Shown piece by piece: positions 3,641 through 40,046 of a stretch of 41,970 nucleotides of DNA. The stretch is taken from the IMG/VR virus record IMGVR_UViG_2061766007_000872; one strand, given 5' to 3'. Position 1 is the first letter of the stretch. The number at the start of each line of letters is the position of its first letter. A program made the position numbers and the translations under genes. The notes under the pieces were generated by a model. The model did not search any database and was not told the origin of the DNA. It saw only the letters and a list, made by a program, of their open reading frames with translations. This DNA is from an uncultured virus (IMG/VR IMGVR_UViG_2061766007_000872). Taxonomy: Duplodnaviria; Heunggongvirae; Uroviricota; Caudoviricetes.

Positions 3641-6547
3641 ATGAGTTTAATACATTGGTGGCCTTTAAATGGTAATTTAAATGACTATGGTCTTGAGTCT
3701 AGTGTTTTAACAAACAACGGTGCAACTATAAGTAATAGTGGCAAGATAGGTCAGTGTTATAGTTTTAATTCTAACTATATGATATTGTCAAATCCAGACT
3801 TATCATCTTTTTCTAGCGAAATTTCACTAGCACTTTGGGTAAAAATAACAACTTCACATTCCGGTTATGCACAAGTATTAGTTATGGGAACAAGTGGAAC
3901 AAGTTGGAATGATATACGTTGTGGATTAGATTTAGATGGCAATGGTTTAATTTACTTCAATGTCTCAAATGGCTCATCAAATGGATTCGTGTCTTCAGGT
4001 GATACATATAAAGATAATAAATGGCATCACGTAGTGGGTGTTTTAGGTTCTAATTCAATCAAGATTTATGTAGATGGTGAATTGAAGAACTCAGCGACAA
4101 CTGGTCTTATTCCTGCGTTAACTAACTGTTCTATTTTTGTAGGTGGTAATAGTGCAGGAGAAATGGCAAATAATAATGATTGTTTAAATGATGTAAGAAT
4201 ATATAATCATGCATTATCTACAAAAGAAGTTAAAGAAATAAGTAAAGGTCTTATTTTACATTATCCTTTTAATGACCCTTATGCTGAAGAAACAACAAAT
4301 TTAATTAATCAATCTAATCCAATTACAAATACAGTTAGATGTTCTCCATACAAGAATGGTGTTAAAATAGACTGGACAAATCCAGATAATCAAGGTGATA
4401 CATATTTTATGTTAAATGCACCAAATATGATACCTGGTGTTTCATATATCTTCTCTTTTGATTGTAGTGGTTTATTAGCAGATAGTGATGTCACTTGGGC
4501 AGTATCTAATACATATGCTCCTGCACAAATTCACAATGGAAGAAATGTATTTATATTTACTCCTAATAGTTCTGCATTACAATTATTCTTTGATGACTGG
4601 TCAAGAGATACAAGAATAGATAATTTAATCATGACAAATTTTCAACTTGAACAAGGTGACCATGCAACTCCATATCACTCATCAGTTACAAATTTATTCT
4701 ATGGTAGAATGGATTTCTCAAATACTGATTATTGGAGTAGAAGTCAGGTGAACTCAACTGCTCCAACAATTGATGCTGACGGTAACATGGTTCTTTATGG
4801 TGTGGGAACTGATGGTAATCATCAAAGTTATACAGTGTCTTCACAAGGTGGGATGATTCCTTTAGTGGGCTCTACTCCTTATACTCTTTCTGTATATGTA
4901 AAACATTCATCAACTACAGCAGGTTTTAATATGTATTTCTATGAACGTAATTCTGAAGGTCATGTAAAAACAACAGTTACTAGATTCACAGTTGGCTCTG
5001 AAGATGTAGGTAAATGGGTTAAACATAGTATCACACTTACAACAGAAGCAGTTACTACTGTAATGTATGCAGAACTTAATTGCTATAATAGTCCAGATGG
5101 TGATACAGTTATCATGATGAATAATAGTATTTCTTTAGAGATACCTAGTAAAGTATATGATGCCTCTGGTTATGGTTATAATGGAACTCAATATAATTGT
5201 GCAATAACAAATGATTCAAGATGTGGACAATATTCTTTATCTACAGATGATGCCTTTGGTTTTGTTACATTACCCTCAATTTATTTAGATACATCTTTTA
5301 CAATAAGTACCTGGGTAAAACATTTAGATTCTTTCTCATCTTGGGCAAGAATATTTGACTTTGGTGCAGCACCTAGTGGTGCAGATTACACTATCGGTAT
5401 GGCTACTTCATCTTCAGGAGGCACAATTTGTGTCTTTGGTAGAACTGCTGGTGGCGGTACTTTTCCAGATAGTTATTTTGGCTCTATGGATTTTAATTGG
5501 CATTTATGGACATTAGTTGTTGATGGTACTAATATAAAATTATATAAAGATGGCGAATTATTTAATGAATTTACTGCTTACGATAATGTAGGTGGTGCAA
5601 CATATAACTATAACTATCTCAATAAATCCAATTGGGAAGGAGATGGCTTCTCAAAGAAATATTACTCAGACTTTAAGATTTATAATACTGCTTTATCCGC
5701 TTCAGATGTTTTAGCAGAATATAATAGAAAAGCAAGTATTGATAAGAATGGTAATTTATTTACTAGTGAATTTGTTGAGAAATGTAATAATTTATTGGAA
5801 TATGCTAATTATAGAATTGCTTCTCAAGGTGAGATAAAATGGTACTTATCAGTTGTTACTAAGAGTAATTATGATGCACATGTAAATGATAGGGATTATG
5901 CATATAATTATATTTTAGGTGCTTATACACAGGCGAATTTAAGTGTAACTGTGACAAGTGAGGGTATAAGAATTTATTCTTCTCCTGATGATTCTTATAC
6001 TAATTATGACCAATGGGGTGGTTTATGTATTTCACCTATGGCTATTGGAAACTGCTTAGTTAAAGGACATAGATATATCTTGTCTTGGCATGTTAAAGGA
6101 CAATCAAGTAGAGCAATGACTGATGTATATTTTGAAAGTCAAATAGGCTGGGGAACAAGTGCAACAAGACCATCTCCAACAACCAATAAGTTATATAGTC
6201 ATCCTGCTAACTTTAATGGTGAGATTGATTGTTTTTGGGACTTCACAATTAATGATGATATATTCAAAGTTTGCACAAATAATGGTGGTAACACATCCTT
6301 TACTGAAGGCGAAACATACTTATCATATGCAGGTATTAAACTAGGATATACCTATGAAAACACAGGGAGTTTAGGAACAGATATCTATATCACTAATCTA
6401 CAACTGATAGATGTTACTGATGATAAGACATATAAAATAACAAAAGATGGAGTCATTGAAACAACACAAGCAATATCTGGTGTTAGTGATAAAGCAAGAA
6501 TACATTCAAGTGGCATCATAGATGCAGTAAACCTAGAGGAATGCTAA
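3641..6547 (+). CDS. Concanavalin A/LamG-like lectin-domain virion protein with inserted carbohydrate-binding-like modules
   Basis: Two LamG-type signatures (WWPLNGN..ISLALWVK..WHHVV..IYVDG..NDVRIYNHALS; FTISTWVK..WHLWT..LYKDG..DFKIYNTALS); RBS AAGGAGG; lies between fibre genes. Confidence 0.8.
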   Translation: MSLIHWWPLNGNLNDYGLESSVLTNNGATISNSGKIGQCYSFNSNYMILSNPDLSSFSSEISLALWVKITTSHSGYAQVLVMGTSGTSWNDIRCGLDLDGNGLIYFNVSNGSSNGFVSSGDTYKDNKWHHVVGVLGSNSIKIYVDGELKNSATTGLIPALTNCSIFVGGNSAGEMANNNDCLNDVRIYNHALSTKEVKEISKGLILHYPFNDPYAEETTNLINQSNPITNTVRCSPYKNGVKIDWTNPDNQGDTYFMLNAPNMIPGVSYIFSFDCSGLLADSDVTWAVSNTYAPAQIHNGRNVFIFTPNSSALQLFFDDWSRDTRIDNLIMTNFQLEQGDHATPYHSSVTNLFYGRMDFSNTDYWSRSQVNSTAPTIDADGNMVLYGVGTDGNHQSYTVSSQGGMIPLVGSTPYTLSVYVKHSSTTAGFNMYFYERNSEGHVKTTVTRFTVGSEDVGKWVKHSITLTTEAVTTVMYAELNCYNSPDGDTVIMMNNSISLEIPSKVYDASGYGYNGTQYNCAITNDSRCGQYSLSTDDAFGFVTLPSIYLDTSFTISTWVKHLDSFSSWARIFDFGAAPSGADYTIGMATSSSGGTICVFGRTAGGGTFPDSYFGSMDFNWHLWTLVVDGTNIKLYKDGELFNEFTAYDNVGGATYNYNYLNKSNWEGDGFSKKYYSDFKIYNTALSASDVLAEYNRKASIDKNGNLFTSEFVEKCNNLLEYANYRIASQGEIKWYLSVVTKSNYDAHVNDRDYAYNYILGAYTQANLSVTVTSEGIRIYSSPDDSYTNYDQWGGLCISPMAIGNCLVKGHRYILSWHVKGQSSRAMTDVYFESQIGWGTSATRPSPTTNKLYSHPANFNGEIDCFWDFTINDDIFKVCTNNGGNTSFTEGETYLSYAGIKLGYTYENTGSLGTDIYITNLQLIDVTDDKTYKITKDGVIETTQAISGVSDKARIHSSGIIDAVNLEEC

Positions 6548-6556
6548 ATTAGATGA
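6542..6556 (+). promoter_or_regulatory. Putative phage late-promoter motif TGCTAAATTAGATGA
   Basis: One of 12 copies; 16 nt before ATG 6573. Confidence 0.65.
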
Positions 6557-6572
6557 TAAAAGGAATAAATAT

Positions 6573-8416
6573 ATGGCAGATTTAAATAGCACATTAGTTA
6601 GAGGAAATCTTAGAGTTACAGATGAAATCACTACAAGTAGTGTAACTTCTCCTAAGGTTATTTTAAATGATGTTCAGCATAGATTAAGTCAAGAAGATGG
6701 AACAACAATAACAAGATATAATGGTTCAACAATTGCAGTTCCTAATATTAGTGGTAAAGGTGCTGCACTCTTAACTGATGAAGGCAATGACTTTGGTCTT
6801 CTCTATGTTGGTTCAGATGGTGCTTTATTGGCTAACTCTGGTGATACAGGATATGTATTAAGAGTTCATGATAAAGACACAAGCACTGATATTTTACAAG
6901 TTTGTCAAACAAATGGCACATCTGCATTTAATAGTAATCTTAATGTTAACGGTGCTTTAGAAGCCACAAGCATTACAGAAAGTGGAACTGCATTATCATC
7001 TAAATATTTAGGAATCAATTCTAATGCCGCTTCAGCATCTATTCCTTATGGCTTTAGTTCAAGAGGCACAAATGACTGGTCAGGTGTGTCAGGGACAATG
7101 GTAACTGACTGGTCAACTTCTTCTGCTGGCGACATAATGTTCAAAGATGATAGCGGAAAAATCAATGTTATTACAGATGGTTACTTCTATCAGGGCATTG
7201 ACATTTATGGCTCTTCTAAAAGAGTTCTTGATGAATATGATATCTCACATACAACATGGGGTAATGCAGGCTATGCCAGTAGTGCTGGTAATACTCCTCT
7301 CTTATTATATCAAGATACAAGAGATGCTGCAGTTTCAGTATCTGATGCAGTTGACTACAATGGTATTAAAATTGAATTTAAAAACAAAACAGCAAGTTCA
7401 ATTCCATCTACTGGAACATGGACAGCACTAATTACTTTAGATGGTTATAGCGATAATTCAGGTGGTTATCCAAGTCAACTCGGTTTTAGTATGAGTGACT
7501 TAGGTGCAGATAGACATCTCTATATGAGAAGTCCTGTTGATGGTTCAACATGGGGAGCATGGAAAACAATTGCATTTCATGGTGACAATATCTCTAACTT
7601 CAATAATGATAGTGGATATATAACATCTAGTGGAAGTTGTGCATACGCTACTTCAGCAGGCAGTGCTACAGACTCTACTAAAGTTCCATTAGCAGGTAAT
7701 AGTAGTTCTATGACTGGTACTTTAAAGGTATTAGGTTCTGGTAGTTCTCTTGGTTCTACTTCAACATCTATTACTACTGATACTTCTAATGCTCCTAATA
7801 TTTTTATTTCNNNNNNNNNNNNNNNNNNNNNNNNTATATTGATAATTTAACAATAGGTATGCCCGGTACGACTGGCTCAGCACAAATAAATTGTGCAACT
7901 GCACCTTCAGGAAGTTTACCAAAAAATATAACATATACCTTACCATATACTGATGATAATGATGGTGGTACACTTGCTACTCAATATTGGGTAGAACAAA
8001 AAGGATATTCCACTGTTTCTGGTGTTAATGATTTAACTAACTGGACTTCTATTACTATTAATGGAACAACAAAAAGTATCCCTGCGCCAACAACTGTTTA
8101 TAATCACAATGTTGTATTAACAGATAATAGTGGCTATAGATTAAGAATGCTTATAGTAAATGGTAGTTCTACATTGTTTAATGAGTTTAGATTAGTTTAT
8201 GCTTATCTTAGTCAATTCACTTCAGGAACTTATGGTGGTCCTGGTAATGTTTATGACAGCGATTATGAGTATGATGGTGCCATAACTTATTGGGCAACAG
8301 GTGGTTCTGGTGGTGGCCGATACATAAGAGTATCTTACATCATGCCTGAGGGATATTTTGCTACTAAAGACTTTACAGCAACTTCAGTAACAAGTGTAGT
8401 TGATACAAGAGTTTAA
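6573..8416 (+). CDS. Second tail fibre-like protein; probably one gene across the N gap at 7811-7834
   Basis: The frame of ORF 7859..8416 is open back to the gap and has no clear RBS. Shares ExGTxLxxKYLG with the first fibre, plus MRSPVDGSTWGAWKTIA and ISNFNNDSGYIT motifs. Confidence 0.7.
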
Positions 8417-10332: not shown

Positions 10333-10347
10333 TGCTAAATTAAGTGA
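10333..10347 (+). promoter_or_regulatory. Putative late-promoter motif TGCTAAATTAAGTGA
   Basis: Repeated intergenic motif ahead of 10391. Confidence 0.65.
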
Positions 10348-10985: not shown

Positions 10986-11000
10986 TGCTAAATTTAATGA
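10986..11000 (+). promoter_or_regulatory. Putative late-promoter motif TGCTAAATTTAATGA
   Basis: Directly after a terminator and before RBS AAGGAG at ~11010. Confidence 0.7.
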
Positions 11001-11949: not shown

Positions 11950-12755
11950 ATGATTTCAATAATTATACCTTTCTACAATACTGAAAAATATTTAGAAGAA
12001 TGTCTGAGTTCTGTAAAGGCTCAGACTTTTTCTGATTATGAATGCATAATGATAGATGATGGCTCTACTGATTCATCTAGAAGTATTGCTCAGAAATATG
12101 CAGATGAGGATAGCAGATTCATTCTTCTAAATGACAAACATATAGGATTTCCACTTGCAAAGAATTTAGGATTAGATAATGCTAAGGGTGAATATATTTG
12201 TTTTATAGATAGTGATGATTTTGTAGAGCCTCAATATCTTGAAAGTATGTATAGAATACTTATAGATACAGATAGTGATATATCAAGTTGTAGTCATACA
12301 GCAAAAATGGAGTTTACTAAAGTACCTTTTGATAACAATACATCTATATTTGAAGGTACAGAGGTTATTCTAAATAAATTACTACAAAATACATATCTAT
12401 GGAATAAACTCTTTAAGAGAGAAATCTTTGATAATATGAGATTTGATAATGTTATTGCATTGAGTGATACAATGCTTAACTATAAATTATTTGAGAGAGC
12501 AAAGAGAACAGTATATACAAATTATATTGGCTATCATTATAGAGTACATAATGAAAATATGACATATCATGTGAGAAACTTTGAACCAACTTATTGGCCA
12601 CATAGACTGAATGTATATCTTATTNNNNNNNNNNNNNNNNNNNNCAAGCAAGAAGAAAGTTCATAAATGAGTATAGATTTTGCTTACCTCATCTAACAAA
12701 AGAACAAATAGAAGAGTTTCGCAATAGAGATGACTTTAAGAGATTGCTAAATTAA
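11950..12755 (+). CDS. Glycosyltransferase family 2 (C-terminus reconstructed across N gap)
   Basis: ISIIIPFYN, IDDGSTD, YICFIDSDD, LWNKLFK. After the gap a frame reads QARRKFINEY..FKRLLN* to 12755. Confidence 0.9.
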
Positions 12756-12759
12756 TTGA
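12745..12759 (+). promoter_or_regulatory. Putative late-promoter motif TGCTAAATTAATTGA
   Basis: Repeated motif ahead of the holin/terminase unit. Confidence 0.65.
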
Positions 12760-15560: not shown

Positions 15561-15575
15561 TGCTAAATTTAATGA
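15561..15575 (+). promoter_or_regulatory. Putative late-promoter motif TGCTAAATTTAATGA
   Basis: Intergenic, ahead of the portal RBS AAGGAG. Confidence 0.7.
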
Positions 15576-18014: not shown

Positions 18015-18674
18015 ATGAAGAATTTAATTGGCATAATATCATATCTACCAGATGACAAGGAAAAGAGAGCAACTAGATTCACAGGTTTAGTTGACTTAAT
18101 AAATACTTGCAACAAAATATTTGGATATAGTCTACATATTTTCATTCTCATTCAAAACTATTCTGAAAATGAAATCCATGCACTATATAGAATACCAAAT
18201 GTTGAATGCTCATTTAATTATCCAAAGTTAGGCATTCTTGGTGCTAGAAGACAATTAAGAAGTGAATTCTTAAGGGGTAATTATGATAATCTTATCATGT
18301 TAGATGATGATAGCATTATTGAAGGTGGTGCTGCAGGCGGTAAAAAGTATATTGAACAACTAGATAGTCATCCTGGAATGTTTTATGAATTTCAAGATAC
18401 ACTATTAAAACTATTTGCAATCTCTAGAGAAATATTTGAAGAACAAGATTTTATTGATGTAAATCCGGAGAAAGAGGAAGGTTTTGAAGATAGAGTATTT
18501 ATCAATGTTTTAAGACACAAATTTCCAAACAAGAGATATGTGTTTGAGAAGAATGGATTGCAAGAATCTAGTATATCTACGAGTGATAAAATGTCAACTT
18601 GGTATACAAATCAAGATAATAAAAAGATGTTAGATAATACGGAAGTTATAATAAATAAAATAATTAATTGCTAA
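18015..18674 (+). CDS. Putative GT-A fold glycosyltransferase
   Basis: IGIISY, LGILGARR, LIMLDDDS (DxD), GFED motifs. Confidence 0.6.
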   Translation: MKNLIGIISYLPDDKEKRATRFTGLVDLINTCNKIFGYSLHIFILIQNYSENEIHALYRIPNVECSFNYPKLGILGARRQLRSEFLRGNYDNLIMLDDDSIIEGGAAGGKKYIEQLDSHPGMFYEFQDTLLKLFAISREIFEEQDFIDVNPEKEEGFEDRVFINVLRHKFPNKRYVFEKNGLQESSISTSDKMSTWYTNQDNKKMLDNTEVIINKIINC

Positions 18675-18683
18675 ATTAAATAG
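18669..18683 (+). promoter_or_regulatory. Putative late-promoter motif TGCTAAATTAAATAG
   Basis: Motif variant ahead of protease/scaffold/capsid. Confidence 0.6.
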
Positions 18684-20279: not shown

Positions 20280-21635
20280 ATGAAAGTTTCATTAACAGAA
20301 GCATACAAAAAGAGATTAAGTGTCTCTGAACAAGTTTATGCTAAAGCCCATGAAAATAATGCTTCCTTAACAATCGCTCAAAAAGAAGTGATTGCCAAAG
20401 TTTTAAATAACTCTTCTGAATTTATCAAATTCAAAATGAATGAAGCATTCGGTAATAGTGTTGGTACACAAAGAGCAGACATGGGTAATTTCAAAAAGTT
20501 CTGCTTAGACGTTACAACCGTCGCTTTACCAAACTTAATTGCTAACGATTTAGTTATCGTTCAACCAATGCCATCTTTCACCGGCTCCATCCAATACTAC
20601 AAGTTTGTTGCTGGTAGTAATAAGGGCGGTGTTAAGATTGGTGATGAATTCAACAGTCCATTCAAACTCAGTCCAATGACTGAAGAAAGAATGAACTACA
20701 CCGGCCAAGCCGTTGTTGATGTCATTCCAACTATCGGTGATGATGGTAAGGCTTTCTTAGCCTGGACACCAATCAATCCAGATTTTGCTCCAGTTTTAGT
20801 TGGTGCTCCATCTGGTGCTACAATCACAGTTAAAGATGCTGCTACAGGCGAAGTCAAGATTGAAGGTGCTACCGCTCCAGTTAGAGTTAAATACCTCTAT
20901 GACCAAGTCACAATTCCACAAAATGACTTACCAATCTACAATGTCAAAGTTGATAGAATTACCTTAGAAGCAAAACCACGTAGAATTGCTATTTACTATT
21001 CTCAAATGGCTGCTTTCCAAGCGCAACAAGAAAACAACATTGACTTAGGTAAATTACTCCAAACTCAAGCAGTTGGTGAATTAAACCTCCAAATTGACAC
21101 AGAAGTTGTTAAACTCTTAGCCACTTCCGCTCCAAAAGATGCTACATTAGAATTCAATAGAAGAAAACCAAATGGTATCAGCCTTGCTGAACACTATGAA
21201 AGTTTCTCCGAAACATTAGAAAGAGCATCTCAAATCATCTATGACCGTACACAAAAACATGCCGCTAACTACATGATTTGTGCTTCCGATGTTAAGACAA
21301 TGCTCCCATTAATGAGAGGTTGGAAAGAAGCCAATCGTGGTAAAATTAACGGTCCATATTTTGCCGGTACATTAAATGGCTTAAAAGTCTATGTCTCTTC
21401 CGCAATTGAAAAAGGCAAATTCATTTGTGGCTTCAATGGTGATGACTTAGCAACATCCGCTGCTATCTATGCTCCATATATGGCCATTGTTCCAACAGCC
21501 TTATTACAATTTGCCGATGGTGGCAATAGTCAAGGTTTCTCCACACTTTATGACTTAAAACTCTTAAACGATTGTTTATTAGTTGCTGGTGAAGTTGTTG
21601 ATAAACCACAAGTGGTTGATGTCCACAATGCCTAG
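20280..21635 (+). CDS. Major capsid protein, T4 gp23-like
   Basis: ALPNLIANDLVIVQPM, ITLEAKPR, GPYFAGTLNG, IYAPY motifs; biased codon use; followed by a strong terminator. Confidence 0.93.
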   Translation: MKVSLTEAYKKRLSVSEQVYAKAHENNASLTIAQKEVIAKVLNNSSEFIKFKMNEAFGNSVGTQRADMGNFKKFCLDVTTVALPNLIANDLVIVQPMPSFTGSIQYYKFVAGSNKGGVKIGDEFNSPFKLSPMTEERMNYTGQAVVDVIPTIGDDGKAFLAWTPINPDFAPVLVGAPSGATITVKDAATGEVKIEGATAPVRVKYLYDQVTIPQNDLPIYNVKVDRITLEAKPRRIAIYYSQMAAFQAQQENNIDLGKLLQTQAVGELNLQIDTEVVKLLATSAPKDATLEFNRRKPNGISLAEHYESFSETLERASQIIYDRTQKHAANYMICASDVKTMLPLMRGWKEANRGKINGPYFAGTLNGLKVYVSSAIEKGKFICGFNGDDLATSAAIYAPYMAIVPTALLQFADGGNSQGFSTLYDLKLLNDCLLVAGEVVDKPQVVDVHNA

Positions 21636-24497: not shown

Positions 24498-24529
24498 TTG
24501 TATAATATAGTGAATGCTAAATTAAGTGA
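24498..24529 (+). promoter_or_regulatory. Tandem TTGTATAATAT and TGCTAAATTAAGTGA motifs
   Basis: 24498-24508 and 24515-24529. Confidence 0.65.
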
Positions 24530-25677: not shown

Positions 25678-26603
25678 ATGAACATAAAAGATAAATCATC
25701 TGAGATTAAATTTACTAAAGAATACATTCAGAACACTCTTATAGAAATTCAAGATGCAACACAGCATCAAGATTATACTAAGGTTAAAGAAATAATGAAA
25801 AATTATGGTCTTAGTGCTTCAGTTGAGGACATTGATTTATTAAGACAATTAGCAAAGATACTTGATACTGAGATTCCAAAAGAAAGACTTTTGCGAATAA
25901 AAGAGGACCGAGATTTTGAAATATTTAAAGAGAAAATGAAACTTCATGAACTCTATTTGAAAAATGACCCCTCAGGTGTTAGGGCAGAAATTATAGGTCT
26001 AAATTTAAGAGGAAGAGTGTTAAGTGGATATAATTTTTCCTGTGCACAAATTAGAGATACTGACTTTAGTGCTTGCGCATTACCATATGCTAATTTTTGT
26101 AATGCATATCTTTATAATGTTAATTTTACAGGTGCTATCTTAAAGTATGCAAATCTTTCGGCTACTCTTTANNNNNNNNNNNNNNNNNNNNNNNNNNNNN
26201 NNNNNNNNNNNNNNNNNNNNNNNATAAAGACAAGAAAAAACTTGAGGATTATAAACATAGAACAGGAGTTTGTCTAAATAAACATATTATTGGTTGGAAA
26301 AAATGTCATTTGCCAAATGTTTTTTACCGTAAAGTTTTAGTTAAATTAGAAATTCCTAGAGGTGCTGTTGTATTCTCAATTAATAATGATAAATGTAGAA
26401 CAAACATGGCTAAAGTACTTGATATTGTATCTTTAGATGGAAAGAAACATTACAAACTTGCTTATGCTGGTTACAAATTATTTAAATATCGTGTAGGTAA
26501 AGAAATCTTTGAACCTAACTTCAATTGTCAATACAATGTTGAATGTGCAGAAGGTATACATTTCTTCAGAAATAAAAGGAGTGCAATCAATTATTATGGA
26601 TAA
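25678..26603 (+). CDS. Pentapeptide-repeat protein with C-terminal DUF5758-like domain (one gene across N gap)
   Basis: A(D/N)(L/F)xx repeats. After the gap the frame is open through IIGWKKC..VKLEIP..KCRT..AKV..CAEGIHFF. Confidence 0.75.
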
Positions 26604-26778
26604 GAAATTTGTAGTTTATCATTATCTAATGGATTCAAATCTTGAAAGTACATTGAATGAAATGGCAGATAATGGATATGAACTAATTCATCTACATACA
26701 AGAAATGAGTTTGACACTTATTACAAACATGACAAAAATATACATCTAGCAGTATTCAAGAAGATTGAAGAAAAATAG
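26596..26778 (+). CDS. Small protein, DUF4177-like
   Basis: MDKKFVVY..LESTLNEMADNGYELI pattern. Confidence 0.5.
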   Translation: MDKKFVVYHYLMDSNLESTLNEMADNGYELIHLHTRNEFDTYYKHDKNIHLAVFKKIEEK

Positions 26779-26790
26779 TTGTATAATATA

Positions 26791-26910
26791 GTGACCAGAA
26801 GGTGCGCCTAATGGGATAAGTGGTGAATCCATCGTTTATATGAGTAGAGTAGTTTGATACTTTTCTAGTCAGTGACTCATATTTCTGTTAAACTCTATTA
26901 GATAGAGAAA
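26791..26910 (+). ncRNA. Candidate structured RNA D or extended leader (~120 nt)
   Basis: TTGTATAATAT at 26779; CAGAA/TTCTG closing GGAT/ATCC and TATGAGT/ACTCATA arms; CTCTA/TAGAG hairpin. Confidence 0.45.
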
Positions 26911-26917
26911 AAGTATT

Positions 26918-26932
26918 TGCTAAATTTAATGG
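26918..26932 (+). promoter_or_regulatory. Putative late-promoter motif TGCTAAATTTAATGG
   Basis: Motif copy 11 nt upstream of the riboswitch P1. Confidence 0.65.
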
Positions 26933-26943
26933 CCGCATATCAT

Positions 26944-27022
26944 ATGAAATAAAGGGCACACTTACAGTGATGTAAGGTCGCAAAACTATGAGTCTCATTA
27001 GAGATTGTCAAGTCGCTTTCAT
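26944..27022 (+). ncRNA. c-di-GMP-I (GEMM) riboswitch aptamer
   Basis: P1 ATGAAA/TTTCAT; AAAGGGCACA; P2 CTTACA-GTGA-TGTAAG (GNRA loop); GTCGCAAA junction; P3 ACT..GTCTC/GAGAT..GTCAAGTCGC. Ligand-contact equivalents G20, A47 and C92 are retained. Confidence 0.88.
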
Positions 27023-27044
27023 GGAAACATGAAGGCTTTTATTT
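27015..27044 (+). terminator. Riboswitch expression-platform terminator
   Basis: GCTTTCATG-GAAA-CATGAAGGC-TTTTATTT; the 5' arm overlaps the 3' strand of P1. Confidence 0.88.
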
Positions 27045-27070
27045 GCAAAAAGCAAAGGAGAATATACAAA

Positions 27071-27646
27071 ATGAAATTAAGAAACAAATTAAGCATCATC
27101 ACAGTAGCATCTATGTTGGCATTTATGGGTGCTGGTTTCGCAGCATGGACATTCAACAATAGTGTTGCACAAGAAAGTGAATCTGGTACATATGTCACTT
27201 CTGCTATTAGTGCGAAAAATGTTACATTAAGTGGCAATACTACTGTGTACTTAGTTTTAGACCAAGCAAAACCATATTGGTCAACAGCGGTCAACACAGG
27301 CTCTAAGCCAGTTGAATTAGCCAATGGTAAAATTACAGTTGCTCCTGATTATGATTTACAAAATCAAAATGATGGTGCATCTTGGACATGGACTTTAACA
27401 AGTGTCATTGACATTGATTCTGACATTGCTAACTATGTGAATGTTACAGGTTTTGACACAACAAATAAAACAGGTACAATTCATGCAAATGTTGGTGAAA
27501 CAATTTCTCCAGTTGACTACAATCTTCCAACATTATCTTACACTGCTAATAAGCCAAGCACTTATGCAGAATATCAAGATATGTTAAGTGATGTTAATGG
27601 TAAAGTTATTACATTTACATTTAACTGCACATTTGTTGAAGACTAA
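27071..27646 (+). CDS. Secreted protein with SipW-class signal peptide (TasA/camelysin-like fibre subunit candidate)
   Basis: RBS AAAGGAG; MKLRNKLSIITVASMLAFMGAGFA-AWTF; beta-rich body ending ITFTFNCTFVED. Confidence 0.7.
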   Translation: MKLRNKLSIITVASMLAFMGAGFAAWTFNNSVAQESESGTYVTSAISAKNVTLSGNTTVYLVLDQAKPYWSTAVNTGSKPVELANGKITVAPDYDLQNQNDGASWTWTLTSVIDIDSDIANYVNVTGFDTTNKTGTIHANVGETISPVDYNLPTLSYTANKPSTYAEYQDMLSDVNGKVITFTFNCTFVED

Positions 27647-27658
27647 TAGGAGAGACTA

Positions 27659-28450
27659 ATGAACTCAATTACGATTATCACAATAGTCGTAGTTGCACTC
27701 TTAACAATAATTATCTTTGGTTTAACTTTATTATCTTATAAAGCATGTTTAAAAGCATACAAATTTGAAGTTAATAATGGAAATCATGATAAGCAAATTA
27801 AGAAAGATTATCTTAACAAAAAGAAAAAAGGAGGGCTACTAGGACTAATTGGTTCGTATGTAGTCCTTTCTCTTCTTGTGGGATTATTTGCTTGTGGAAT
27901 AGTTTATAAAGCAAGCAACAATAACATTATTATCAATAATCAAACTGCACTTGTTATTAGAAGTGGCTCAATGTCAGATTTCTATGATGAAGAAATTGCA
28001 AATGAGTTAGATAATAATAAGAGTTTACAATTTGATGTTGGTGATATATGTCTATTTGAAAAAGTATCTTTAGATGATGAATTGATACCTGGTCAAGTAT
28101 ATGGTTATAAATATAAAAATATAATCATCACGCATAGACTAGTTTCAATAGATTCAAATAATTGTAAGTTTAGAGGAGACAACAATAAGACATTTGATGG
28201 AAATGTTTCTCGTGAGAATGTCATCTTTCACTATGTAGGAAAGAAACTTCCAGGTGTTGGTGCTTTTGTACTCTATGCTCAGTCTTACTTCGGTATTTGG
28301 TCTCTTGTAAGCATCATTGGTGTAGCAATTAGTTCTGAAGTTGTATATCATAAAATAGATGTTATTAATAAAGATAGATTTAAAATCATTTGTCCTATAC
28401 TTCCAGAACCAGAAGTGAAGAAAAGAGGGAAGAAGAATGAAACTAGGTAG
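27659..28450 (+). CDS. sipW: Signal peptidase I, SipW/ER-type (Ser-His)
   Basis: VIRSGSMS, VGDI, IITHRLV, FRGDNN..DG motifs; two N-terminal and one C-terminal hydrophobic segments. Confidence 0.88.
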   Translation: MNSITIITIVVVALLTIIIFGLTLLSYKACLKAYKFEVNNGNHDKQIKKDYLNKKKKGGLLGLIGSYVVLSLLVGLFACGIVYKASNNNIIINNQTALVIRSGSMSDFYDEEIANELDNNKSLQFDVGDICLFEKVSLDDELIPGQVYGYKYKNIIITHRLVSIDSNNCKFRGDNNKTFDGNVSRENVIFHYVGKKLPGVGAFVLYAQSYFGIWSLVSIIGVAISSEVVYHKIDVINKDRFKIICPILPEPEVKKRGKKNETR

Positions 28451-29420
28451 AAAACTTCTAATTCCAATAATTAGTCTCTTTGCAACATTTCTGCTCGTTG
28501 GAACAACATTTGCTGCCTGGACAACTAACAATGCAAACAGTACAGATGCGCTTGTTCCTGTAGAGGTTTTAAATTGGACATTTGAAGATATTGATTTTGC
28601 CAAGTCATCTAATCTATTAAGTGCTACTAATTTAAATGTCACTAAAGAAGAAACAATTACTCAAAATAGTAATGAAGCGATTAGAATCACAAGTACAACA
28701 GGAACATCAACAAAAGACCACATTATTAATATTAACTTAGATAGAGATTACTACTTATCTGAGATTAAGTATTATAAGTTTGAATTTGATTATTATCATA
28801 GATATAAAAGAGAACAACATGATAAGGGATTTCCTAAAGTTCAATTTACAATTAATAATTCTACTTTAGGTAGTGACCAAGGTGGAACAGACACATGTAC
28901 AAGTAAGTCTCCATTTGTTGCTACTGCTATTGATGAAGATTGGTGGCATTTAGAGTATTACATATTCGCTCATATGCCGACAATGGCCAAACATGGTGAT
29001 ACACCAATTGCTCTAACTAAGAAAATAAATGGTGTCAGAATCAATGATAGAACTATGTATGATTATGCAGGTACTACTGCTTTTGCAATTATTGATAATA
29101 TGTCATTTAGTGAAGAGCCTGCTCCGAGATTAGGCATCTTTAACAGATGGACAAGTGCTACTGCCGGACAACCATTTTGGTTTAAAGTTGCATTCTCAGG
29201 TGAGTTACATTCAGTTAAACTTTATTCAAGTGATACCAGTGTAGCAGTTCCAGAATTTGACCCAACAGATATAATTTCTACAAGTGCTCCATTTCCTAAT
29301 GGAAGCCCATTTTACTTTAATCTTTTACAAGCAGGTAAAGTTCAATTTACAGCAGTATTGGAAGTTGGAGAGAATCATGATGTGTTTACTGTTACTTCAG
29401 ATACATTCACTGTTAACTAA
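28437..29420 (+). CDS. Secreted protein with SipW-class signal peptide; carbohydrate-binding-like and Ig-like regions
   Basis: MKLGRKLLIPIISLFATFLLVGTTFA-AWT; WWHLEY..IIDNMSF beta-sandwich pattern; SSDTSVA..AGKVQFTA Ig-like end. Confidence 0.7.
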   Translation: MKLGRKLLIPIISLFATFLLVGTTFAAWTTNNANSTDALVPVEVLNWTFEDIDFAKSSNLLSATNLNVTKEETITQNSNEAIRITSTTGTSTKDHIININLDRDYYLSEIKYYKFEFDYYHRYKREQHDKGFPKVQFTINNSTLGSDQGGTDTCTSKSPFVATAIDEDWWHLEYYIFAHMPTMAKHGDTPIALTKKINGVRINDRTMYDYAGTTAFAIIDNMSFSEEPAPRLGIFNRWTSATAGQPFWFKVAFSGELHSVKLYSSDTSVAVPEFDPTDIISTSAPFPNGSPFYFNLLQAGKVQFTAVLEVGENHDVFTVTSDTFTVN

Positions 29421-29463
29421 AAATATTGTATAATATTATGATTAGATGAAGTCGTTTAATAGA

Positions 29464-29478
29464 TGCTAAATTAAATAG
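29464..29478 (+). promoter_or_regulatory. Putative late-promoter motif TGCTAAATTAAATAG
   Basis: Identical to the copy at 18669; followed only by a short non-coding stretch and a terminator. Confidence 0.55.
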
Positions 29479-29503: not shown

Positions 29504-29531
29504 GGAGGAACAGAGGTTCCTCTATTTTTTT
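29504..29531 (+). terminator. Intrinsic terminator after the sipW operon
   Basis: GGAGGAAC-AGAG-GTTCCTCT plus ATTTTTTT. Confidence 0.8.
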
Positions 29532-29631
29532 GTTGTATAATATAGTAATTCATAAACCCTCACATGTTAGAAGGTACTGCAAAAATACTTGAACTATGCA
29601 GAAAATAGAGTCTAAAATTATNNNNNNNNNN

Positions 29632-29786
29632 AGAAGTTGGAGAGAATCATGATGTGTTTACTATTACTTCAGATGCATTCACTGTAAACTAAAAATATTG
29701 TATAATATAATAATTCATAAACCTTCACATGATAGGAGGTACTGCAAAAATACTTGAACTATGCAGAAAATAGAGTCTAAAATTAT
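29632..29786 (+). repeat. Variant second copy of ~29361-29436 joined to ~29545-29621 (strain haplotype joined across 10-N gap)
   Basis: Repeats the 3' end of gene 28437..29420 and the following RNA-like element with scattered substitutions. Confidence 0.85.
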
Positions 29787-29814
29787 GAACGTGATAATGA
29801 GTAGACTCTTTTTT
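29712..29814 (+). ncRNA. Candidate small RNA/attenuator E (~100 nt; partial variant copy at 29547-29621)
   Basis: TTGTATAATAT upstream; TTCATAA/TTATGAA closing ACCTTC/GGAGGT and CTGCA/TGCAG; AGAGTCTA/TAGACTCT plus T tract. Confidence 0.55.
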
Positions 29815-29877
29815 ATTTGACATCAAGTTGATAAAATNNNNNNNNNNAAACGTGATAATGAGTAGACTCTTTTTTAT

Positions 29878-29906
29878 TTGACATCAAGTTGATAAAATGA
29901 TATAAT
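29878..29906 (+). promoter_or_regulatory. SigmaA-type promoter TTGACA-17-TATAAT
   Basis: Perfect consensus with TGn extension; RBS AAGGAGG follows. Confidence 0.85.
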
Positions 29907-37202: not shown

Positions 37203-37217
37203 TGCTAAATTTAGTGA
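37203..37217 (+). promoter_or_regulatory. Putative late-promoter motif TGCTAAATTTAGTGA
   Basis: Ahead of RBS AGGAG of 37241. Confidence 0.7.
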
Positions 37218-40031: not shown

Positions 40032-40046
40032 TGCTAAATTTAATGA
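40032..40046 (+). promoter_or_regulatory. Putative late-promoter motif TGCTAAATTTAATGA
   Basis: Ends 1 nt before ATG 40048. Confidence 0.7.

Follow-up and report, generated by a model that had tools for sequence, protein, structure and literature searches.

Riboswitches have been described as rare in phage genomes, and sections of a 2017 survey name two Clostridioides difficile prophages as the only phage carriers then known of class I riboswitches for cyclic diguanosine monophosphate (c-di-GMP-I) (PMC5473149); these riboswitches lie in two prophage regions that correspond to the lysis module of PhiCD119 (PMC3649979). In this study we analysed 41,970 nucleotides (nt) of phage DNA with 31% G+C from an uncultured, large T4-like virus of the cattle gut (IMG/VR record IMGVR_UViG_2061766007_000872), a stretch referred to as a whole as the window, in which a predicted c-di-GMP-I riboswitch precedes an operon of three secretion genes and is itself preceded by a copy of a repeated motif that would serve as a promoter of the phage. 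Similar to the C. difficile prophages, the aptamer is carried on a phage genome ahead of phage-borne genes. However, those cases are temperate prophages in which the riboswitch lies beside lysis genes, and the passages describing them mention no phage-specific promoter. Here the carriers form a T4-like clade whose records reach 232-239 kb, three putative secretion genes make up the cargo, and the aptamer stands directly behind a putative phage promoter motif. In limited searches of the literature, no paper among those listed for riboswitches of jumbo or huge phages contained the word riboswitch, and those listed for c-di-GMP riboswitches and phages included nothing on lytic or T4-like phages.

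For the cargo, the closest described systems are the sipW-tasA and sipW-bsaA operons of Bacillus and Clostridium perfringens. In the latter organism, BsaA is secreted, forms extracellular filaments and needs SipW (PMC7395162). The phage operon resembles these systems in having a putative dedicated SipW-type peptidase beside predicted secreted proteins that share an unusual signal peptide. It differs from them in that genes 1 and 3 match no TasA or camelysin family (Pfam, PHROG and NCBIfam), gene 2 scores under the curated cut-offs, control would be exerted by a c-di-GMP riboswitch, and the phage operon is known from sequence and models.

The putative promoter in turn resembles the late promoters of T4, which consist of one 8-bp box placed roughly a helical turn before the start, with a tight consensus and no -35 element, and are read by the small sigma factor gp55 with gp33 and the sliding clamp (PMC2988020). 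As in the T4 family, virion and lysis genes are preceded by a single AT-rich 8-bp box at the -10 position that keeps tightly to its consensus and has no -35 partner, and a related phage with a T4-like capsid, protease and baseplate encodes a clamp and a clamp loader. In a variant reported for phage Aeh1, a/gC at -13/-12 replaces TA (PMC2988020), and the box GCTAAATT agrees with the Aeh1-type box, as worked out from the wording of this review, at 7/8 positions, the last position being T and not A. Unlike T4 late promoters, the phage motif has an extra conserved T-purine-purine 4-6 nt downstream, all of its copies lie on one strand, and no gp55 or gp33 homologue is detectable. Because no gp55 homologue was found, we take the likeness to T4 late promoters as resemblance and not as membership.

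The motif ahead of the operon and in related phages

The motif was brought out by scanning the window with words of positions 26890-26965. The word TGCTAAATT occurs 11 times in the window, with 11/11 copies on the + strand, which also holds all gene-sized reading frames taken as genes; shuffled sequences contain it 1.35 times on average and at most four times, and 0/100 shuffles reached 11 (coordinates of all copies are given in Table 1). A logo of 36 sites, made of the 11 window copies and 25 intergenic GCTAAATT sites of one relative, gives the 15-nt consensus tGCTAAATTawwTRR. The TAAATT hexamer is constant across the 36 sites by selection of the core, with C always at the position that would be the n of a TGn element, and conservation extends beyond the selected core to position 9 (A in 30/36), position 12 (T in 29/36) and positions 13 and 14 (purine in 34/36 and 36/36). 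Position 0 is T in 28/36 sites and position 1 is an invariant G. Information is limited to positions 0-14, with none in the -35 region. A position weight matrix (PWM) from the same sites detects 13 sites on the + strand of the window and 0 on the - strand at a cut-off of 12 bits, and places the copy ahead of the riboswitch in its top class.

Start codons lie 16-153 nt downstream of most copies in the window, and several copies are preceded by a hairpin with a T-run and followed by a ribosome-binding site. For the 641-amino-acid (aa) frame whose ATG lies 16 nt after the motif start, the leader would be about 3 nt if the predicted start site holds. The PHROG matches in the window comprise a terminase fragment, portal (15600), head protease (18746), major head protein (20280) and holin (12756). 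The sequence-only reading had placed the motif ahead of the portal, protease/capsid and tail genes. This stands for the portal and the protease, but the capsid gene at 20280 has no copy of its own, and large unannotated genes (6573, 37241 and 40048) do follow the motif, their identity as tail genes not being confirmed. The adjacency of motif and aptamer also stands, with the spacing corrected from 11 to 12 nt for the 15-nt motif.

Genome-wide use of the motif is seen in related phages. The main relative, G001, is a complete 232-kb virus record that was analysed in full; it is T4-like, with a Gp23-type capsid protein, an S77 prohead protease and a T4 baseplate protein, and also encodes a sliding clamp (processivity factor phrog_947), a clamp loader (phrog_5846), a DNA polymerase, a UvsX-like recombinase and an SbcCD-like nuclease. 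The clamp and clamp loader are seen in G001, the window spanning another part of its own genome. Forward and reverse counts of the motif 9-mer are 19/0 in G001, 0/22 in G002, 18/1 in G003 and 17/0 in G005 (control counts 0-1), and 4/1 in G004, the single phage record without genome-wide use of the motif. An unbiased count of 8-mers in the intergenic DNA of G001 ranks GCTAAATT first, the ribosome-binding site next and TTGTATAAT words after it. In this genome the motif is found ahead of the prohead protease, head-tail adaptor and baseplate genes, among others, and no recognised replication gene has it ahead.

G001, G003, G004 and two contigs of the genome collection (L019 and L020) share the order of the three genes; both contigs are chromosome-like, with flanking ABC-transporter and acyltransferase genes on both strands. 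Upstream of gene 1, the motif is present in the window (TGCTAAATTTAATGG, 19.6 PWM bits) and in the same place in G001 (AGCTAAATTAAAAGA, 16.8 PWM bits), both with the riboswitch leader, and in G003 (TGCTAAATTAAAATG, 14.7 PWM bits) with a different hairpin leader. There is no motif above 5.2 PWM bits in G004 or L020, both of which have the riboswitch leader, or in L019, in which no riboswitch was detected. The motif 9-mer is at control level in the two genomes that hold L019 and L020 (5/5 vs 3/3 in one and 2/14 vs 9/8 in the other), and all examined phages that both use the motif genome-wide and carry the operon (the window, G001 and G003) have it upstream of the operon. The sequence-only reading had held that the operon is wired to the phage's own promoter motif, domesticated and not a passive host capture, and had proposed a comparison with chromosomal homologues. 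As far as sequence can tell, this comparison supports the wiring, the motif belonging to the phage and not to the bacterial copies of the operon. L017, a partial operon of 59% GC, was excluded from the upstream comparisons. The leader of G003 (L016 2322-2453), a GC-rich long hairpin with a T-run, belongs to no Rfam family, with matches at chance level only (E ≥3.7), and may act as another kind of sensor or as a simple attenuator.

Metagenome contigs contributed 42 further loci, 20 of which were compared with Rfam, with an aptamer found in 13/20. The riboswitch-bearing set of 17 loci contains some near-duplicates in pairs and one locus with its aptamer downstream of gene 3; within it, 9/17 have a motif of at least 9 bits 12-45 nt upstream of the aptamer (the window, L001, L033, L036, L037, L051, L052, L059 and L063, with the exact GCTAAATT core in 8/9) and the remaining 8/17 score 2.4 or less. 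The chance expectation is about 0.3 sites, as derived from the minus-strand background of G001 (28 sites of at least 8 bits in 232 kb). Among metagenome loci long enough to show where gene 1 starts together with the 300 nt before it, the motif is upstream in 9/18, and 8 of these 9 have the riboswitch. The GCTAAATT box lies 15-21 nt before the aptamer in G001, L033, L036, L037, L059 and L063, in surrounding sequence that differs, and the leaders diverge between lineages outside the box.

One contig, from the likely source sample, is identical to the window over 26230-27694, and a contig of another study spans 26396-27267 with 30 differences, bridging the upstream gene, both motifs discussed here, the riboswitch and gene 1. 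Because the operon also lies inside the complete 232-kb phage record and on other long contigs, a chimeric assembly is excluded, in agreement with what had been argued from the window alone. The DNA of the operon region has no match among 50,697 phage records. The protein collection contains 175 homologues of gene 3, almost all of them without a name and some on contigs of up to 232 kb, with one labelled hypothetical protein of a Bacilli bacterium metagenome-assembled genome in its source record. In the gene 3 tree (29 rows), phage and chromosome-like copies are not separated and L019 nests among sequences from long contigs, so that we draw no direction of transfer.

Predicted riboswitch and secretion operon

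The aptamer is expected, from its sequence, to bind c-di-GMP and to control expression. Orthologous c-di-GMP-I matches upstream of the operon in relatives score 46.8-60.2 bits. The model of the GGC variant gives 51.1 on the window's aptamer, under its gathering score of 59, and the aptamer has the standard GCAAA where the GGC-variant consensus has GCGAA, a comparison limited to this pocket segment. The closing helix P1 shows compensatory changes between lineages, with AUGAAA/UUUCAU in some loci and CAUAGAA/UUCUGUG in others. Its 3' strand, TTTCAT (27017-27022), lies inside the 5' arm of the intrinsic terminator, which couples the expression platform to the aptamer, and a terminator of at least 9 bp that overlaps the P1 3' strand is found in 9/13 loci. 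The terminator fold has a predicted energy of -32.1 kcal/mol unconstrained against -16.1 with P1 enforced, a cost of 16 kcal/mol. Because the closing helix and the terminator share a strand, the ligand should block termination, and the folding models therefore predict that the c-di-GMP-bound aptamer acts as an ON switch. On one metagenome contig (L045 2421-2495), another c-di-GMP-I aptamer of 66 bits lies just downstream of gene 3, which suggests a second riboswitch-controlled unit beside the operon. The genome holding L020 has one GGDEF protein and a single c-di-GMP-I match, that of the operon; GGDEF domains were found in 0/4 phage records.

The three genes would encode a signal peptidase and two secreted beta-sandwich proteins. 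Gene 2 matches TIGR02228 with E 1.5e-9 and 38 bits, under the cut-off of 51.85, and the SipW model NF046067 with 36.7 bits against a cut-off of 190, and the catalytic-type motifs SGSM, THR and GDNN are visible in its translation. Genes 1 and 3 have in common a hydrophobic signal peptide ending in FAAWT. The model of gene 3 (predicted local distance difference test score, pLDDT, 78) shows a jelly roll like that of carbohydrate-binding modules together with an immunoglobulin-like domain, and the model of gene 1 (pLDDT 63) has no fold match at E ≤0.001.

Putative promoter class and proposed gate logic

We consider it rather probable that a promoter motif belonging to the phage drives the three secretion genes through a c-di-GMP ON riboswitch. 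According to this explanation, tGCTAAATTawwTRR would be a promoter of the phage's own programme, with one -10-type box and no -35, read by the host RNA polymerase with a phage-supplied specificity factor not yet recognised. RNA from the copy at 26918-26932 would start at about 26932, and the c-di-GMP-I aptamer would be its first structured element. Without ligand, the terminator stem 27015-27036 would form and transcription would stop; with c-di-GMP bound, P1 (26943-26948 with 27017-27022) would hold the 5' arm of the terminator, and the polymerase would read into the three genes, yielding a SipW-like signal peptidase and two secreted proteins with a matching signal peptide. The unit of riboswitch and operon would be of bacterial type, placed behind the motif in phages that use the motif. 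The architecture of the motif, the T4-like set of genes and the kinds of gene that follow it suggest late activity. The narrower statement, that a T4-like clade placed a bacterial c-di-GMP-ON secretion operon behind its own late promoter so that output appears only late and at high c-di-GMP, is put forward tentatively.

Several observations weigh against a phage-specific late promoter as the source of operon transcription. Profiles of the gp55 type (phrog_234 and phrog_12791) match 0/4 phage records at E up to 10, a phmmer search of every reading frame in G001 and the window with T4 gp55 gives a best E of 0.32, and the review states that recognisable homologues of gp55 were present in every T4 relative sequenced by then (PMC2988020). 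No sigma factor or RNA polymerase gene was found among the scanned proteins of G001 (112 proteins with Pfam and 122, 5 and 10 with PHROGs, which are not all of them, the 2,897-aa frame L027 being left out). A T-G-C followed by TAAATT is also compatible with a host extended -10 promoter. Within the window, a recognised late function is seen for 3/11 downstream genes, and the orphan copy at 29464 has a strong terminator within 40 nt downstream and no gene after it. In relatives, copies close to the riboswitch frequently begin with A, C or G in place of T, and two of them score only 9.1 and 9.5. Finally, the riboswitch is unshielded, since no terminator is predicted between it and either the second motif at 26779 or the upstream genes. 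In the same searches, a Sigma70_r2 scan matched only G004, which has its own sigma-70-family gene, and a PDB sequence search with a 274-aa G001 protein encoded beside the SbcC-like gene returned an unrelated best match (E 1.2). A T4 middle promoter (MotA box) was also considered as the motif begins with TGCT, and was rejected on the logo, which has no conserved -10 element 11-13 bp downstream.

The second motif, TTGTATAATAT or, in its fuller form, TTGTATAATAT(A)wtG, has nine exact copies in the window, all on the + strand (8425, 21718, 24366, 24498, 25097, 26779, 29426, 29533 and 29698), and its 11-mer is found 16 times forward and 0 times reverse in G001, where the TTGTATAAT motif lies ahead of tmRNA, DNA polymerase and methyltransferase genes. 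Its logo, from 30 sites, is again -10-only with no -35, and it probably represents a different temporal or host-type promoter class. The copy at 26779-26789 lies directly 3' of the stop codon of the preceding gene and 139 nt 5' of the first motif, and it is possible that it acts as an additional promoter reading into the riboswitch. Contigs from two other sequencing runs (X5 and X7) skip 26791-26901 (111 nt), which brings the two motifs side by side, and also miss 5 nt between motif and aptamer (26936-26940), showing that the spacer is variable among close relatives. In the metagenome locus L052 (about 417-445), a TGTATAATATATTG box follows directly after the first motif, so that both motif classes are fused ahead of the riboswitch. 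Pairs resembling consensus -35/-10 elements occur at 26765-26792 and 26854-26883, each matching 9/12 positions; the density of such pairs in the window is at chance (39 found vs 34 ± 5.3 in shuffles). The sequence-only reading had seen no TTGACA-type promoter here, and this is borne out for the -35/-10 pairs but has to be qualified by the second conserved motif, with its perfect TATAAT at 26782-26787.

The same reading had described the arrangement as an AND gate of phage late transcription and high c-di-GMP. This logic is supported only in part: the second motif and the upstream genes may also feed the riboswitch, and a strict AND gate is doubtful because of the missing terminator noted above. 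For G001 and several metagenome loci the idea is reasonable. In G001 a truncated tRNA-like element (L001 3307-3367, Rfam tRNA, 40 bits, 61 nt) and a T-run stand between the upstream gene and the motif, where the window has an unrelated 125-nt spacer. The safest statement is that the riboswitch would gate any transcription that arrives, with the phage-specific box as the conserved source of it.

A standard extended -10 promoter of the host (TGn with TAAATT), read with sigma-A and needing no phage factor, active throughout infection and leaving c-di-GMP as the sole gate, would account for the T at position 0 in 28/36 sites, the invariant G and the A at -11 and T at -7 that TAAATT retains, as well as for the lack of a detected phage sigma factor in G001; the second motif is -10-only as well, so promoters of this kind may simply be what the host uses. 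We consider this unlikely, because the hexamer and the C at the n position are fixed, unlike sigma-A sites, which usually vary around TATAAT, one genome contains two sharply distinct motif classes, and the 9-mer stays at control level in both bacterial genomes that carry the operon. The T of TG is moreover missing in 8/36 sites and in most riboswitch copies, and the motif is found ahead of portal, protease, holin, adaptor and baseplate genes with no recognised replication gene among its targets.

Alternatively, most operon RNA would come from further upstream, started at the TTGTATAATAT motif (26779) or reading through from genes 25678-26778, with TGCTAAATT adding little or having another role at this site. 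This reading draws on the perfect TATAAT within a motif conserved in 30 sites, on the absence of a predicted terminator from 26779 to the aptamer, and on the adjacency of both motifs in L052 and in the contigs of the two other runs. We nevertheless judge it quite improbable, as the GCTAAATT box keeps its place before the aptamer in the six loci named above despite their differing surroundings, and in G001 the tRNA-like hairpin and T-run precede the box, with no TTGTATAAT copy ahead of the operon leader. It is very improbable that the motif is no promoter at all and works instead as a DNA site for a phage regulator or as a signal for RNA processing or translation near the 5' ends of messages. 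Start codons at 16-150 nt would allow the motif to be transcribed, and the copy at 24515 sits where RNA from the neighbouring TATAAT would begin. However, many copies follow terminator hairpins with T-runs, so that upstream transcripts would rarely contain the motif, the conserved T-purine-purine lies at the distance expected of a start site, one G001 copy has a ribosome-binding site that starts 13 nt behind the first motif position, too close for anything but a promoter, and the resemblance to the T4 family speaks against this reading as well.

If a phage promoter does feed the riboswitch, the locus would be a concrete case of a phage combining its own transcription programme with a second messenger of the host. 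The c-di-GMP riboswitch is conserved across an entire clade of large T4-like phages and lies at a fixed distance behind the putative promoter box of that clade. On the narrower statement, the virus would read a lifestyle signal of its host (sessile, high c-di-GMP) through the riboswitch, the infected cell would export matrix- or adhesin-like proteins only late, and the virus would thereby decide how the dying cell and the progeny interact with biofilm, in phages of cattle-gut bacteria. The consensus is a likely late-promoter consensus for an uncultured phage group and could be used to annotate timing classes. The bacterial and phage versions of the operon differ in promoter and keep the riboswitch, and thus offer a natural experiment on the rewiring of captured genes.

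Coordinates and neighbouring sequence

Table 1. Features of the window, in order of position (predicted from sequence unless a database match is named)
Feature	Position	Strand	Remarks
First motif copy	6542..6556	+	ahead of unannotated 425-aa gene at 6573
First motif copy	10333..10347	+	ahead of gene 10391 (phrog_4105)
First motif copy	10986..11000	+	after terminator-like hairpin; ribosome-binding site downstream at about 11010
First motif copy	12745..12759	+	ahead of holin gene 12756
First motif copy	15561..15575	+	39 nt ahead of portal gene 15600
First motif copy	18669..18683	+	ahead of head maturation protease gene 18746
First motif copy	24515..24529	+	17 nt after second-motif copy, ahead of gene 24648
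Second motif copy TTGTATAATATAGTG	26779..26793	+	perfect TATAAT 26782-26787; predicted start near G26793
First motif copy TGCTAAATTTAATGG	26918..26932	+	ends 12 nt before c-di-GMP-I aptamer
Predicted transcription start	26932	+	conserved purine, motif position 14; logo compared with T4 late geometry (PMC2988020)
Closing helix P1, 5' strand (ATGAAA)	26943..26948	+	duplex prediction and compensatory variants in relatives
c-di-GMP-I aptamer (RF01051)	26945..27020	+	Rfam 49 bits, gathering score 35
Intrinsic terminator	27015..27046	+	9-bp stem 27015-27036, then T tract
Shine-Dalgarno AAGGAG for gene 1	27055..27060	+	from sequence
Gene 1, 191 aa	27071..27646	+	predicted secreted; signal peptide ...GAGFAAWTF
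Gene 2, 263 aa	27659..28450	+	SipW-like (archaeal/endoplasmic-reticulum-type) signal peptidase I
Gene 3, 327 aa	28437..29420	+	predicted secreted; signal peptide ...TTFAAWT
Orphan first motif copy	29464..29478	+	runs into terminator 29504
Terminator after operon	29504..29533	+	predicted
First motif copy	37203..37217	+	ahead of gene 37241
First motif copy	40032..40046	+	ATG of gene 40048 16 nt after motif start

The genetic code differs between the two phages, G001 reading TGA as tryptophan (with this code its coding density goes up from 0.68 to 0.92, and in-frame codons number 453 for TGA vs 470 for TGG) and the window using the standard code. The operon genes of G001 carry in-frame TGA read as tryptophan and are thus written in the phage's own code. 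G001 has no tRNA-Trp(UCA), and has a tmRNA and a gene for a release factor with an RF-1 domain; a phage suppressor tRNA behind the TGA-recoded operon was dropped as an explanation, the tRNAs of G001 being only those for Lys, Leu, Gln and Pro. A low-GC Gram-positive or a Mollicutes-like bacterium probably serves as host. G001 further encodes a formate-tetrahydrofolate ligase, a formate/nitrite transporter family protein and an anaerobic ribonucleotide reductase, and a 1,195-aa frame (L003 14732-18319) with LAGLIDADG and intein-splicing domains.

Homologues of genes 2 and 3 also occur in GC-rich DNA near tRNA clusters, in L017 (GC 59%), L050 and L072 (GC 54%), with the riboswitch present beside them in L050 and L072. 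In the record holding L017, the AT-rich 9-mer nevertheless occurs 17 times forward and 0 times reverse.

Two genes upstream of the riboswitch, the window carries a gene for a pentapeptide-repeat protein (25678-26277) with a near-consensus TTGACA-17-TAAAAT promoter ahead of it. On the 3' side of the operon the sequence is repetitive: 29361-29443, which comprises the last 60 nt of gene 3 and a second-motif copy, is duplicated at 29633-29715, and further nested duplications follow, with 29533-29621 found again at 29698-29786 and 29788-29837 identical to 29849-29898.

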